Shown piece after piece: positions 11,595-41,943 of a stretch of 64,000 nt of DNA. This DNA is from an uncultured Bdellovibrionales bacterium (lineage in GTDB: Bacteria > Patescibacteriota > Minisyncoccia > Moranbacterales > UBA9337), in the NCBI GenBank assembly GCA_964605525.1, contig CAZSCV010000006.1, forward strand, positions 434 to 64,433. The letters run 5' to 3'. Position 1 is the first letter of the stretch; every line of letters starts with the position of its first letter. The notes under the pieces are model-generated. The model was not told where the DNA came from. It did no database searches and saw nothing but the letters and a program-made list of their open reading frames with translations. The translations under genes and the position numbers were made by a program.

Positions 11595-13154
11595 TCAATA
11601 TTGCAATAACTGATGATCGGCCGGTTTGACTTCTTCCGTCCTGATCACAGAATATTTTTTACGAACCTCGTGTTTCAATTCGAAACGAACGAAGGCTCCG
11701 TACGAATATCCACCAGCAGCACCTGCAACTGCCGATGCCAACGTATAATCAAAACTTGGACCAAACATCAACCACTCGCGATATCTGGCCTCCGCATTCA
11801 GATTCAGTCCCCAGCGATCTTCGTGAGGAGCAAATCCAATCTGCGCGCCAAGTCTCCCCGCCCAGTCCTCGGAAAAATACTTGTGAATTTTCGCTCCGAT
11901 AACAAATCCAGCGCGATCACTCACTTCATCTCCACTCCAACTGGAATTGATGGACCCGCTTACGTCAAACCATCCCTCCGCGTACAACACCGCCATAAGT
12001 TCAGGCGCAAATTGACGGAGATATTCGGCGTAATACCCCAAGAGAAAATGATCTTCGTCTTTGTGATAACCTGACGAAGAATTTTCCCCGTGCAAATGTT
12101 CCCAAAGCGTGCGGAACATAAACTGCACTTGATGGGGATATCCATTATCAGCAAGCCCGGTCCAAATAAAACCGATTTCTGGACCAATTCCCGCACTGTT
12201 CCACTCATAGCCGGCATCTGTTTCACCAAAGTCGCCCTTAGCAAAAACACCGACCTTCGGCACTAATGTGCCCCCAAAGATGTTGATGTTTCCATTCTCA
12301 CATCTTTGAAGAGTCAGGAGATACTGCGCGTACCACCAAAGGCCATGCACATCCCTCTCCTTATTCTGCCACGCGCCCATACCAGCATCTACTTCATGCT
12401 CGCACTGGACGCACTCCTTTTCTTCCACGACTTCTCTGAAAATCGGCGGGAGTTCCGGCGGAGTTTCCGGAATCACTTCCGGCACCACTGGAGCAGGCGG
12501 AATTTCCACTTTTTTAACCGGAACGGGAGGCTTCTCCCAAATGAGCCAGTTGGCGCACTCAGGTTTTGCATAAACGGATCCCACATAGCTTCCGTTTACT
12601 ATAATACCAAATCTTCCCACTTTCGCCTTTTCCGGCGAAAGCTCGGCTCGGTACCATTTCACCTTATTTTTTCCCGACACCATCTTAATGACGGCGCCGG
12701 AAGGCAAAATATCCATTCCCTCGCTGGCAAAATTCAGCCGGGCATCTTTTGGAATATCAAATCCCAAAAGTTTCAAACCTTCGACGAAAGTTCCCCTCCA
12801 AGGATCATCCCCGACCTCATCGTCGGAGTAAACTGCAGGATTTTCCTTAGTGCCAGTTACCACCTTTTTCGTGATAACAGAAAAAGTCTTTTTCGCCCTT
12901 TTGGTTATTTTGGGCGTAATCAACTTTTGTTGATTAGAAATTTTTTCAGGAATGATCACATTCTGTCCGACACGAATCGTGTACGGGGCAGAAATCTTAT
13001 TTTCCTCAGCGATGTTATGCCAGTCAACTCCCAGTTTAACGCCGATAGTTGAAAGACACTCACCCTTTGCGACCGTATGTGTCTGATCTGCCCAAGCGCT
13101 TGTTGCACACAAGGCAATCAGAAGCATTACCCATAAACCAACAATCCGCTTCAT
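11595..13154 (-). CDS. Secreted LysM-domain protein with Pro-rich linker and large C-terminal domain (GC-rich island)
   Basis: Signal peptide, then a LysM motif (HTVAKGECLSTIGVKLGVDWHNIAEENKI...IRVGQNVIIP), a PVPVKKVEIPPAPVVPEVIPETPPELPP linker, and a Trp/Gly/aromatic-rich C-terminal domain. Confidence 0.6.
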   Translation of the reverse strand: MKRIVGLWVMLLIALCATSAWADQTHTVAKGECLSTIGVKLGVDWHNIAEENKISAPYTIRVGQNVIIPEKISNQQKLITPKITKRAKKTFSVITKKVVTGTKENPAVYSDDEVGDDPWRGTFVEGLKLLGFDIPKDARLNFASEGMDILPSGAVIKMVSGKNKVKWYRAELSPEKAKVGRFGIIVNGSYVGSVYAKPECANWLIWEKPPVPVKKVEIPPAPVVPEVIPETPPELPPIFREVVEEKECVQCEHEVDAGMGAWQNKERDVHGLWWYAQYLLTLQRCENGNINIFGGTLVPKVGVFAKGDFGETDAGYEWNSAGIGPEIGFIWTGLADNGYPHQVQFMFRTLWEHLHGENSSSGYHKDEDHFLLGYYAEYLRQFAPELMAVLYAEGWFDVSGSINSSWSGDEVSDRAGFVIGAKIHKYFSEDWAGRLGAQIGFAPHEDRWGLNLNAEARYREWLMFGPSFDYTLASAVAGAAGGYSYGAFVRFELKHEVRKKYSVIRTEEVKPADHQLLQY

Positions 13155-19787: not shown

Positions 19788-19858
19788 AAGTCTTAAGTCT
19801 TAAGTCTTAAGTCTTAAGTCTTAAGTCTTAAGTCTTACGTCTGTCTTACAACCCCAGT
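19788..19858. repeat. Heptamer tandem array (GTCTTAA)7 plus GTCTTAC variants
   Basis: Seven perfect tandem GTCTTAA units followed by GTCTTAC units, immediately 5' of the GT4 gene start on the minus strand. Confidence 0.8.
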
Positions 19859-20052
19859 CCGGAATATGCCGAGCTCATCGTGCTCAAAAACCACGGAATA
19901 ATCGCAATCAAACCAATAAGCGGAAGCAAAACCGCCCCGATGGAAATTATCATCGTCCAAAGAAAATACTTGCGCGTTTTTTCCACAGAAACAAAAATCT
20001 GTTCCAATTTTTCATCTTGCTGTTTGAATTTTTCCAAAATATCTTGTTCCAT
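19846..20052 (-). CDS. Small hypothetical membrane protein
   Basis: 68 aa with a charged N-terminus and one TM helix. Weak. Confidence 0.25.
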   Translation of the reverse strand: MEQDILEKFKQQDEKLEQIFVSVEKTRKYFLWTMIISIGAVLLPLIGLIAIIPWFLSTMSSAYSGLGL

Positions 20053-21026: not shown

Positions 21027-21103
21027 ATAACAAATACTACACTAAACAGAGATTTATGCAAAGAGAAAATATCCAACGAAATAAATTGGTTTTTTATTTA
21101 ATG

Positions 21104-21174
21104 TTGGGGATGAGGGATTCGAACCCCCGATGCAAGGACCAGAACCTTGTGCCTTACCGCTTGGCTAATCCCCA
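21104..21174 (-). tRNA. tRNA-Gln (anticodon CUG)
   Basis: Reverse complement TGGGGATTAGCCAAGCGGTAAGGCACAAGGTTCTGGTCCTTGCATCGGGGGTTCGAATCCCTCATCCCCAA. It has the U1-A72 pair typical of bacterial tRNA-Gln, anticodon stem CAAGG/CCTTG and loop TTCTGGT. Confidence 0.75.
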
Positions 21175-21429
21175 ATATTCAATTTTCAACACTTAATAAA
21201 TACTATACCAAACTTTTTCAAAAATCAAGAAAAAAGACAAATAAAAAATGCTACGGGATTTTCCAATAGCATTTGCTCGCTTGCGCGATAAGAAGACGAA
21301 TTGCCTTCTTTATGAAAAAGAACAAATTCTTTGCCTATATTTTCAGGATTTGTTTTTCGAGAGAAAAACAGGAATAAGATTCATTTGAACCTATTTCTTT
21401 CCTTTTTTCCTTTTTGAAAAAATAGACAA

Positions 21430-21880
21430 AGAGACCTGGGTCCCTTACTTTTCTAATCGATCAGCAAGGGACCCAACCCAGATAAGCACCGACAACAAGA
21501 GGGGGCAGTTTTTCGGGAGCACCAATATCTAAGCCCAATATCGATATTGGTTTTTACCCATAAAACTTCTATGGGGCTCCTAGCATCCGACCTTAGTCAT
21601 TTAACCTCCCCGCGGAAAATTTTCCGCTTTCTTCATCAGACATTGTCAGCAGTTGGTCTTGACCAGGCGAAGTGGTGAGGTCGCACAACATGAGCAAGTG
21701 ATCAGATAGGGTACTGGTCTTTGATGAACAACAACCATTTTTTCGGGTCGTCCGCGACAGGACGACCGGGGGGGAGGAACGAGATGCATCATATCACATT
21801 CTCCTTTGCCGGTAACGGCGGTTAAGGGTCCGGCTCCGGGCATTTACTCCCAGAGCGCAAACAAAACAAGGTACTTCGAC
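21430..21880. ncRNA. Unassigned GC-rich, hairpin-rich non-coding region (candidate large ncRNA)
   Basis: About 450 nt at about 52% GC in a 35% GC genome with no credible ORF. Hairpins include the perfect palindrome GCCCAATATCGATATTGGGC, GGGTCCCTT..AAGGGACCC, GGTCGTCC-N6-GGACGACC and CCCATA..TATGGG. No tmRNA T-arm (GGTTCGA) is present, and RNase P lies elsewhere. Confidence 0.3.
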
Positions 21881-21932
21881 TTGCAACTTAATAATAATCA
21901 CTTTAAAAAAATCTGTCAATATCAAGACAAGG

Positions 21933-22379
21933 TTATTGCGTTTTGTATTTTTTTTCGCCTTTGTCCATTATGACGGCGTAATCCCGCTCTATTCTTTGGA
22001 CACGTTTTTCCAAAATTTCCAATCTTTGAACATCTGCTTTACTTTTCAATTCCTTGCGCAGAATTTCGATTTCCTTTTTCACATCCTTGATCTCATCTTC
22101 AATCCTTTCTACATAATCAAAAACCATTCTGAACCCTTGAGCCATTTCATTCCTGATTTCTTTCAATTCACCGTCAAATCCGTCCATTCGTTTTTCCATA
22201 CTGCCCATCTTATCTTTCAATTCATCAATTCCTCTTGCTAAAATAGAATGACCTTCAGCTATTATTTTTATCTCATCCCTCATCTCTTCCAAAACAGCCA
22301 AAAACTTGCCCTCGGTAGAAATATTCAAAGGTTTCAATTTTTTCGCAACTTTTTTTCGTGCTTTTTTACTTTCCGACAT
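21933..22379 (-). CDS. Coiled-coil protein, hypothetical
   Basis: 148 aa, lysine-rich N-terminus, heptad-rich Glu/Lys/Arg sequence. Confidence 0.45.
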   Translation of the reverse strand: MSESKKARKKVAKKLKPLNISTEGKFLAVLEEMRDEIKIIAEGHSILARGIDELKDKMGSMEKRMDGFDGELKEIRNEMAQGFRMVFDYVERIEDEIKDVKKEIEILRKELKSKADVQRLEILEKRVQRIERDYAVIMDKGEKKYKTQ

Positions 22380-41053: not shown

Positions 41054-41103
41054 AATTATTTTTATTATACTACACAAACACTTGCAATAAAAATTCAACT
41101 TCG

Positions 41104-41517
41104 TACCAAGGCAAATCTATAAGCCGGATTCTGTACTCCGACGCGAGGTCGGAGTGGCAATCATTTATCTAGCTCCGGCGTTACCGTCGGAGTCAAGCGG
41201 CACCCCCCGGCAAAATGCCGAGGTACGGCCTTGCATTCAAGTAAGGATTTAGCCGTTTCACCTCTTATATTACTATAAGAGCTTATCCCCCGTGAGGGGG
41301 ATATTTTATTTCTTTCGAAATAAAACGTCTCTGCTCGCACCTCTTGGGTTTCCCCATGACGGGCGTTACCTCCGACGATTTTTCAATGTCGGAGCTCCGC
41401 ACCCTTTAGAGCGTCGGAGCCGCTACCCTGCTCCCTGGTACAAAACCAGGGGAATGTCCGGACTTTCCTCTCCGCCGATGCAAAGCATCAGCAGAGCAAT
41501 TGCCCAATTTGCCTTGA
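41104..41517 (-). ncRNA. rnpB: RNase P RNA (bacterial type A)
   Basis: The minus strand carries GAGGAAAGUCCGG (P4 5' strand, plus 41458..41470), ACAGAAUCCGGCUUA (P4 3' strand, plus 41120..41134), AGGGUGCGGAGC, and a P1 pairing CAAGGCAAAU/AUUUGCCUUG. The region is about 410 nt and GC-rich. Confidence 0.8.
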
Positions 41518-41655
41518 TATAAAGCCAAATTTTCAATGTTATATCTACTACTACTCCAAACAATATTAATACTTTTTTACCATTTTGTCAATAAAAACGT
41601 AAAAAACCTTGCCAACAATAGTTAGCAAGGCTAAGAAAACCCGCTTAATATTATG

Positions 41656-41901
41656 CTAAGAGAAAAGAGATTTTAACCAAAAGTATAAACTCTTCCTTGA
41701 ATCACACATCAAGAACAAATATGCAAATATCGATATGGTTGCAAGTTGTCCGCATAAAGCATTCGCTTGCTCTTTCGGAATATAGTTGGCTAGAAAAAAA
41801 TAGCCGCCACACCAAAAGAAGCATTTTAAGAAAATAGTTACCCCAACAACATCAACAGCGTATACTGCGATAGCATCAGAATAAGGATCCCTATTTTTCA
41901 T
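41656..41901 (-). CDS. Small hypothetical membrane protein
   Basis: 81 aa with two hydrophobic helices. Confidence 0.3.
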   Translation of the reverse strand: MKNRDPYSDAIAVYAVDVVGVTIFLKCFFWCGGYFFLANYIPKEQANALCGQLATISIFAYLFLMCDSRKSLYFWLKSLFS

Positions 41902-41943
41902 ACCATCACCTCTCTCTTTTTTTATTTTTAAAAAACTATCTTC

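Follow-up and report, generated by a model that had tools for sequence, protein, structure and literature searches.

A probable gene for a large, modular structured RNA beside tRNA-Gln in a genus of Candidatus Moranbacteria

What occupies a half-kilobase, GC-rich interval that lies 5' of a tRNA gene and seems to encode no protein? The interval, positions 21430-21880 of a 64,000-nucleotide (nt) stretch of Moranbacteria DNA (the window), was described in an earlier note as a structured RNA free of open reading frames (ORFs) and of no recognized class. Divergent tmRNA and 6S RNA were named there as alternatives. We consider it reasonably likely that the locus is an independent gene for a large, modular, structured noncoding RNA of no described family, which is accessory and belongs to one Moranbacteria genus. 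This reading is carried by the strand and promoter, the lack of a family match, a conserved position, helices in which substitutions preserve pairing, presence/absence polymorphism, and an invariant GGAGGUUA-AUG element.

A GC-rich, strongly folded interval

The GC content of the interval is 0.499 and that of the window 0.377, and 200-nt sliding windows across 21500-21900 gave values of 0.47 to 0.50. The GC enrichment reported in the earlier note is thus real, although its figures (about 52% versus about 35%) have to be replaced by 49.9% and 37.7%. No other intergenic stretch of the window is both long and GC rich, the RNase P locus excepted. The minus strand folds with a minimum free energy (MFE) of -164.9 kcal/mol, compared with -135.0 +/- 6.3 kcal/mol for dinucleotide shuffles (z = -4.8; 0 of 100 shuffles were as good). 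For the plus strand, the z-score against dinucleotide shuffles was -3.8.

Among the helices listed earlier, GGGTCCCTT-N19-AAGGGACCC was found with arms at 21438-21446 and 21466-21474, and GGTCGTCC-N6-GGACGACC with arms at 21746 and 21760. The arms CCCATA and TATGGG are also present, but they are separated by 7 bases and not by 6. The fourth helix, listed as a "perfect 20-nt palindrome" (GCCCAATATCGATATTGGGC), is absent. The letters there are GCCCAATATCGATATTGGTT, in which only the 16 nt CCAATATCGATATTGG (21535-21550) are palindromic. Another perfect palindrome of 16 nt, GCGGAAAATTTTCCGC (21612-21627), had been overlooked. Both RNA genes named as context were confirmed, tRNA-Gln(CTG) at 21103-21174 (minus strand) and RNase P RNA at 41104-41515.

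The absence of a plausible ORF was borne out. The longest ORFs of the region measure 65, 43, and 34 amino acids (aa), are Pfam negative, and are not conserved between alleles. Six-frame translations of the window cassette and of that of L010, a homologous locus introduced below, matched no Pfam family at E <= 0.1, and PADLOC gave no match either. The gene callers of the source records called no gene within the GC-rich core. Their only calls in the interval are a 46-aa opposite-strand ORF over the AT-rich tail (in L002) and a 77-aa opposite-strand ORF at a truncated contig end (in L003).

Strand, promoter, and ends of the transcript

The genes around the locus all lie on the minus strand, in the order prfB, ftsE, ftsX, a gene for a 148-aa coiled-coil protein, the RNA, tRNA-Gln(CTG), and a gene for an RluF-like pseudouridine synthase. 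Coordinates of the RNA and its parts given below refer to this strand. A consensus scan (11/12) detected a sigma-70-type promoter at 21891-21919, composed of TTGACA (21919-21914), a 17-nt spacer, and TATTAT (21896-21891). Every allele retains TTGACA and an AT-rich -10 element despite complete divergence of the sequence downstream. The position of the promoter would place the transcription start near 21884. Read on the opposite strand, 12 G-U pairs of the consensus fold become A-C mismatches. By sequence, this is an RNA gene on the minus strand with its own promoter.

The GC-rich structured core (21420-21884; about 465 nt and GC 0.49 in the window) terminates near 21420 in a 12-bp stem-loop (21474-21438). 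The AT-rich 180 nt or so that follow (21419-21239) are also folded (z = -4.1) and terminate in a second terminator, T2 (21239-21271). Sequence reading and fold identify T2 as UGCUA...UAGCA followed by U6 and make it the probable 3' end. Its counterpart in B-type alleles is a strong hairpin followed by U6, and the block missing from the empty site L017 (see below) terminates at T2. In the tail proper (21272-21416), a block with 20/30 bases identical to L010 forms an invariant hairpin in B-type alleles (alignment A8, columns 729-770). The structured tail is probably transcribed as part of the RNA, which would then extend past the coordinates of the earlier note, to about 21239, and measure about 640 nt in total. 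The tRNA-Gln gene has a conserved promoter of its own at 21228-21202.

Alleles, an empty site, and a narrow distribution

Homologous loci were gathered via the neighboring proteins and via tRNA-Gln. All alleles occupy one syntenic slot. Allele A is present in the window and in L009/L012; A' in L007, L013, and L019 (Moranbacteria GW2011_GWE2_35_2-); B in L010/L011; B' in L025 and, as a partial copy, in L015; and B'' in L024. In L017 the site is empty. The equivalent of window positions 21932-21249 is missing there; beyond the stop codon of the coiled-coil gene come 76 nt with a terminator and then the tRNA promoter. In the outgroup L016, ftsX is directly followed by tRNA-Gln, with no RNA between them. 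The coiled-coil gene occurs in L017 without the RNA, and L025 has the RNA without the coiled-coil gene; the RNA and this gene are therefore independent.

Between the window and L010, flanking proteins are 86-92% identical, whereas the RNA body is at the noise level of 26-39%. GC stays at 0.5-0.65 in all alleles, against about 0.37 for the genome, and the fold z-scores are -4.8 for the window, -3.1 for L007, and -9.0 for L010. Near-identical blocks alternate with unalignable blocks among the alleles. This pattern suggests a conserved core to which replaceable modules are attached, a view that has moderate support from these comparisons.

A tract of about 900 nt (22100-21200) is 98-100% identical between the window and L009 (5149-6354), inside flanks of about 88% identity. 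The tract spans the 3' end of the coiled-coil gene, the RNA, its tail, and the tRNA, and it indicates recent recombination or transfer of the RNA-bearing segment between lineages. Judged from the alleles, the RNA is accessory, and its alleles moved between lineages by recombination, with modules replaced and core helices retained.

An exact tRNA-Gln sequence scan of GTDB genomes returned three species only, and the clade is therefore very small. FtsX and RluF homologues fall from about 90% straight to about 57-60% identity; with this gap and the RNA-less L016, wider homologues are unreachable through synteny. By sequence identity, the RNA-bearing lineage is a very small genus-level group in Candidatus Moranbacteria (candidate phyla radiation [CPR]). 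The scans of large collections were keyed on the tRNA-Gln sequence, and the restriction to one genus holds as far as those collections show. Searches of the literature turned up nothing relevant on structured RNA in Patescibacteria or Moranbacteria.

Could such a locus be the functionless relic of a mobile or selfish element, or a neutral insertion beside an integration hot spot that is structured merely through its GC content? An empty site in a close relative, a primary-sequence change rate that looks near neutral, and a distribution confined to one genus fit this explanation. The neighboring tRNA-Gln, moreover, looks like an integration site (att-like duplicate of its 3' end in L025, inserted genes in L024, putative serine recombinase in L018), but the RNA sits 5' of the tRNA and the integrations lie on its 3' side. 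Neutral DNA in a 0.37-GC genome should also drift AT-ward, whereas high GC is held here even in alleles that cannot be aligned with each other. The promoter is conserved, substitutions in stems preserve pairing, and fold z-scores reach -9 against composition-matched shuffles. There is no second copy of the RNA in the window or the collected homologous loci. The locus has no terminal inverted repeats, target-site duplication, or transposase or integrase remnant as mobile-element hallmarks, and no Pfam match in six frames. We judge a relic to be improbable. Half a kilobase of GC-rich, folded RNA behind a strong promoter is costly, since CPR genomes are tiny, and probably does something.

No match among described RNA families

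At gathering thresholds, comparison of the whole window with Rfam 15 returned nothing beyond RNase P RNA and three tRNAs. Two alleles were also scanned permissively (E <= 10), the window RNA (allele A) and that of L010 (allele B), the most divergent homologue tested; these scans gave noise only. The tmRNA, 6S, SRP, intron, ribozyme, riboswitch, GOLLD, ROOL, OLE, HEARO, and raiA models were all unlisted. The covariance-model scan proposed in the earlier note thus yielded no confident family match, and the comparison with homologous loci, also proposed there, revealed conservation and covariation; a confident match, or a lack of both, had been named as what would speak against a structured RNA of unrecognized class.

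The suggestion that the RNA is a divergent tmRNA or 6S RNA did not survive, and bacterial SRP RNA fares no better. A tmRNA would fit the gene order, since prfB-ftsE-ftsX followed by an RNA recalls actinobacterial ssrA loci, for which we take the Mycobacterium order to be prfB-ftsE-ftsX-smpB-ssrA. tmRNA is also structured, measures a few hundred nucleotides, and contains a short reading frame that is superficially like the mini-ORF described below. However, ARAGORN detected only tRNAs and no tmRNA in the window, L007, L009, L010, and L024-L027, and thus no tRNA-like domain. Reading by eye revealed no T-arm and no acceptor pairing at the RNA ends. The mini-ORF is also unlike a tag frame, having its own canonical Shine-Dalgarno (SD) sequence, GGAGG, 4-6 nt before an AUG, and encoding peptides that are not conserved. 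For 6S RNA, one expects a rod of about 190 nt (180-200 nt) around a large central bubble; the folds here are multibranched and 465-664 nt long (roughly 460-660 nt), and RF00013 gave no match at E <= 10. The bacterial SRP models, for which the domain IV (helix 8) motif is diagnostic, gave none either. A housekeeping RNA would be conserved and always present, but the RNA bodies are hypervariable and unalignable between genomes whose flanking proteins are about 90% identical, the site is empty in the close relative L017, and the nearest outgroup, L016, passes directly from ftsX to tRNA-Gln. We regard a housekeeping identity as extremely unlikely and effectively refuted.

A group I or group II intron or a small self-cleaving ribozyme is opposed by the lack of a match at E <= 10 and by the position of the RNA, which has its own promoter and is not within a gene. 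Two further candidates were rejected. CUGAUGA...CUGA near 21640 could be read as a hammerhead or C/D-box motif, but it has no Rfam match, the geometry is wrong, and the stem II/GAAA arrangement is missing; B alleles carry UGAUGA without the remainder of the pattern. CsrB-like enrichment of GGA was not apparent, with about 10 GGA in 466 nt (counted by eye) versus about 7 expected.

Conserved helices and compensatory changes

RNAalifold on the window, L009, and L007 predicted a 5' hairpin, P1 (21828-21862; GUUUGCGCUCUGGG / CCCGGAGCCGGAC), in which one pair changes from G-C to A-U (columns 33:60) and one from U-G to C-G. Both the MFE fold and the consensus fold contain a predicted long-range helix of 14 bp, with the 5' strand UACCGGCAAAGGAG at 21801-21814 and the 3' strand CUCUUGUUGUCGGUG at 21487-21501; because it is invariant among A-type alleles, it is predicted without support from covariation. 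In hairpin P5 (21746-21767; GGUCGUCC-UGUCGC-GGACGACC), the sole difference from L007 is in the loop. The central module that follows (21629-21745) is hypervariable, with 66-74% identity to L007 and indels of 11 and 14 nt, whereas the flanking blocks are much better conserved. The 3' domain differs from L007 by 1 base and a 4-nt insertion over about 160 nt.

Hairpin P6 (21612-21627; GCGGAA-AAUU-UUCCGC) is the perfect 16-nt palindrome that had been overlooked. A hairpin starting with GCGGA lies directly 5' of GGAGGUUA in 5/5 alleles, and its pairing survives changes from A-U to U-A, C-G to U-A, and G-C to G-U. Downstream of the mini-ORF, hand alignment with L010 delineated a three-way junction (21516-21580). 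It consists of a closing helix (GGAGC/GCUCC) with 2 compensatory pairs, hairpins Ha (21575-21557) and Hb (21551-21521), the latter with 3 compensatory pairs, and a CGAAAA joiner. The Hb loop, GAU..UGG.CU.A, is common to the window and L010.

The 3' stem-loop (21438-21474; GGGUCCCUUGCU / AGUAAGGGACCC) has a loop with AUCGAU, and its differences from L007, G-U to G-C and G-C to G-U, preserve pairing. A terminator scan also detected a weak terminator-like hairpin (AAGGGAC-CCAG-GUCUCUU) with a U-run at 21417-21446. It overlaps the 3' arm of the stem-loop, so that the two structures are mutually exclusive. This alternative pairing would matter for the RNA. The corresponding U-rich tract of B-type alleles has another predicted partner, the 5' purine tract.

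Although the A and B bodies differ, their elements follow one order: a UGAUGA strand, the GCGGA hairpin, GGAGGUUA and then AUG, a stable hairpin or three-way junction, an A-rich joiner, a terminal GC-rich stem-loop domain, a U-rich tract, the tail with its 20/30 block, and the terminator. A and B have 30 8-mers in common, versus 10 +/- 4 in shuffles. When the 3' domains of the window, L007, and L010 were aligned by hand, 20/20 pairs in three helices remained paired, with 6 compensatory changes and one change from G-C to G-U. Control alignments with the partner strand slid by 1-3 columns gave 0-1 compensatory pairs and 32-59% pairing.

For the three B alleles, MAFFT-aligned blocks contained 123 pairs, of which 97.2% were paired, with 5 compensatory changes and about 17 one-sided, wobble-compatible changes; slid controls gave 0-1 compensatory pairs. 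In the terminal domain of these alleles (32 pairs), 7 substitutions occurred and no pair was broken. The window and L007 differ by 2 compensatory pairs and several broken pairs. In the middle of the L010 and L025 RNAs, a G-rich segment has an upstream and a downstream partner to choose between; each partner changes from CCAC to CCCC in step with the segment. The upstream helix is CCACUA/UAGUGG in L010 and CCCCGA/UCGGGG in L025, which amounts to two compensatory changes, and it is not kept in L024.

An invariant block resembling a ribosome-binding site

The only primary-sequence block common to 5/5 alleles is (A/G)GGAGGUUA, with an AUG 4-6 nt on. In the window, it comprises GGAGGU (21609-21604), AUG (21600), and a 6-codon mini-ORF, MTKVGC, that ends with UAG (21582-21580), the whole lying at 21580-21609. 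The mini-ORFs have 6-12 codons, begin 280-480 nt into the transcript, and encode different peptides (MTKVGC, MTKVGR, MILVVGV, and MILIFDGFGVIG). In every allele, the next stable helix has the stop codon at or inside its 5' strand.

The block stands out against the usage of this genome. An SD-like 4-mer occurs upstream of only 7/56 minus-strand genes in the window, and GGAGG upstream of 1/56 (the gene starting at 13154). Start codons in the window are usually preceded by A/U-rich sequence, e.g., AAAAAT. The predicted folds of the A and B' alleles have the block paired within the RNA. Its meaning is ambiguous: it could bind the anti-SD tail of 16S rRNA, or it could equally be one strand of a helix.

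On a coding interpretation, the transcript would be an mRNA that encodes at least one very small protein, the 6-12-aa mini-ORF and a 48-65-aa ORF near the 5' end being the candidates, and its untranslated regions would be long and structured. The perfect SD sequence and AUG in all alleles would suit such an mRNA, as would Val and Gly codons of the mini-ORF that, read directly, differ synonymously between the window and L010, and an ORF of 60-65 aa starting with MPGAGP that is open in the window and L007. However, the mini-peptides vary in both length and sequence, and the real genes of this genome start without SD sequences. In L007, the 65-aa Cys-rich ORF (21843-21646) shifts to another frame past residue 37, and L010 has nothing equivalent. 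With no Pfam or PADLOC match and a core left empty by the gene callers, we hold a small-protein mRNA to be very unlikely. Two other frames were discarded. In the window, read-through of the two TAG codons that follow the mini-ORF would open a frame of 58 codons, but the L007 insertion of 4 nt disrupts it. A 13-21-aa ORF in the tail, apparently conserved between the window and L010, is frameshifted in L025, and the conserved bases form a hairpin instead.

Several points weigh against an independent structured RNA with a ribosome-binding element. Expression itself, like the start and the ends of the transcript, was deduced from sequence. In the window fold, the SD-like block pairs with CCUCCCC, and it could simply be the G-rich strand of a predicted G-rich/C-rich helix. 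A genome that initiates without SD sequences may not use the block for ribosome binding. In pairwise local alignment, the A and B cores do not outscore shuffled sequence; the homology of A and B therefore rests on position, motif order, and shared 8-mers. The hand alignment of A with B leans toward structure because it was fitted to structure by eye. The compensatory count observed for the B-type alleles was attained by 9/500 shuffles, and covariation statistics are weak with only five alleles from one genus. An empty site and near-neutral sequence change are also expected of a dispensable element.

Possible modes of action

How might a structured RNA of this kind work? As a tentative proposal, which we rate as possible but short of likely, the folded scaffold would present the GGAGGUUA-AUG module to the 30S ribosomal subunit, and loading or translation of the mini-ORF would remodel the adjacent helices. 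In a genome nearly without SD usage, such a scaffold would display an SD-plus-start-codon block, and the RNA could engage the 30S subunit via the anti-SD tail of 16S rRNA. A ribosome loaded at the block might then remodel the 3' domain. The outcome would be a translation-sensing switch or a ribosome-binding regulatory RNA. A bolder version, which we think unlikely, posits a CPR-specific class of large modular RNAs that capture or sense ribosomes through a perfect SD-AUG module, in a lineage where SD-led initiation has otherwise largely been given up. Peripheral modules would be under diversifying selection in phage or host conflict, to which allele replacement, recombination, and null alleles would point, and multimers would perhaps form via palindromic loops.

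The same elements could instead belong to a long leader or attenuator that acts in cis, in which mini-ORF translation would choose between helices and set read-through into the tail, perhaps as far as tRNA-Gln and the RluF-like gene. Like the trp, his, and pheA leaders, every allele has a short ORF with an RBS-like (ribosome-binding site-like) block whose 3' end overlaps a strand of an alternative helix. The strong hairpin of the window (21474-21438) shares its 3' arm with the weak, terminator-like hairpin (21446-21429) and its U-run, and the G-rich segment of L010 and L025 has two alternative partners that changed together. But the mini-ORF is not at the 5' end of the transcript; it lies deep inside a 460-660-nt RNA and has no run of regulatory codons. 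T2 and the separate conserved promoter of tRNA-Gln (21228-21202) intervene before that gene, and there is therefore no operon downstream of the RNA. The upstream alternative pairing is lost in L024, the U-rich tract of B-type alleles is predicted to pair with the 5' end, and the tail encodes no conserved protein, being frameshifted between L010 and L025. The only leader-related Rfam match, to the Phe leader, lies in the AT-rich tail with E = 0.29, far under the gathering score. An attenuator is thus a doubtful explanation.

Compared by sequence with what is known, the locus defines a new family among the orphan large structured RNAs of bacteria, a kind of RNA already known in general. To that group it adds a case with three unusual features, namely, modules swapped between near-identical genomes, a natural null allele, and an RBS-like invariant element. 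If the block does engage the ribosome, it would offer a handle on how translation initiation is organized in these uncultivated bacteria. For the present, interest is limited by the single genus and by sequence-based inference.

Resemblance to other large RNAs

The orphan large RNAs OLE, GOLLD, ROOL, and raiA have repeatedly proved to have unexpected architectures. GOLLD (RF01998) and ROOL (RF03087) are closest in kind to the Moranbacteria RNA. All are large (0.5-0.8 kb), GC rich, and multihelical, have no known protein partner, lie next to tRNA genes, and vary between strains. The Moranbacteria RNA differs in that neither covariance model matched the window or L010 RNA at E <= 10 and in that it is limited to one CPR genus. 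GOLLD and ROOL are encoded in phages or prophages, often beside tRNA genes. The Moranbacteria locus adjoins tRNA-Gln, but a phage context is not apparent: the neighbors are prfB, ftsEX, and the pseudouridine synthase gene, and blastn against phage genomes gave no match. A pattern scan of viral contigs (GGAGGTTA N0-1 AATGA N56-86 CCGAAAA) retrieved four ordinary gene starts, which we dismissed as chance matches. The RNA perhaps works like GOLLD and ROOL and is not a member of either family.

GOLLD combines a conserved 3' part with a variable 5' part, and palindromic loops of GOLLD and OLE form kissing contacts between molecules (PMC12286853). The A-type allele likewise has palindromic loops, AAUU and AUCGAU (the latter twice), which are not kept in B-type alleles. 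GOLLD, ROOL, and OLE assemble into homo-oligomers by kissing loops and A-minor contacts; by analogy, the Moranbacteria RNA might form multimers via its palindromic loops.

RNAIII of Staphylococcus is a dual-function regulatory RNA of about 0.5 kb with many hairpins, its own promoter, and an internal short ORF with an RBS. Related species keep its fold, although its sequence diverges quickly among them. Size, hairpins, promoter, internal ORF with RBS, and fast divergence thus liken the Moranbacteria RNA to RNAIII. On the other hand, it resembles RNAIII neither in sequence nor by model, lacks the C-rich hairpin loops typical of that RNA, has no quorum-sensing locus nearby, and carries a mini-ORF of only 6-12 codons that is not conserved.

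Neighboring features

An insert of about 48 nt (CTCCCCCTTTGGAAAAGGGGGATCAAGGGGGA) is present at the apex of the 5' hairpin in the B' allele (L025:2010-2065; L015:1440-1517) and lacking in L010 and L024. It illustrates how a conserved stem can take up an extra module.

The coiled-coil gene after ftsX is itself hypervariable (21933-22379, minus strand, in the window; L009:4842-5456; L007:6001-6513; L010:6001-6510). The proteins have 148-204 aa and are 64-77% identical, versus about 90% for their neighbors, and about 42-nt repeats occur within the gene. The N terminus is rich in Lys and Arg, and no family was matched; the gene is absent from L025 and L016. As a partner of the RNA, this protein was rejected: searches of Pfam, PADLOC, and NCBIfam gave generic coiled-coil noise only, and the RNA and the gene occur separately.

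The 3' side of tRNA-Gln looks like an integration hot spot (L025:2791-2935; L024:1045-4001; L018:378-2000). The tRNA 3' end (GAATCCCTCATCCCCAAC) recurs in L025 some 70 nt downstream of the gene, where it resembles an att scar. Three genes without a recorded Pfam match are inserted between tRNA-Gln and the RluF-like gene in L024. L018 has a closely similar tRNA-Gln into which the 3' end of a 540-aa ORF on the other strand extends; judged by eye, this ORF is like a large serine recombinase.

Elsewhere in the window, about 430 nt of unannotated intergenic sequence (41516-41943) lie just upstream of the RNase P RNA gene; the interval 41099-41943 has a GC content of 0.42, and comparison of 41516-41943 with Rfam gave noise only at E <= 1. 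Finally, the RluF-like gene is followed by a gene for a predicted 68-aa membrane protein without a family match (19846-20052 in the window, minus strand; L001:3646-3852; L009:7129-7335), which is conserved in several relatives.

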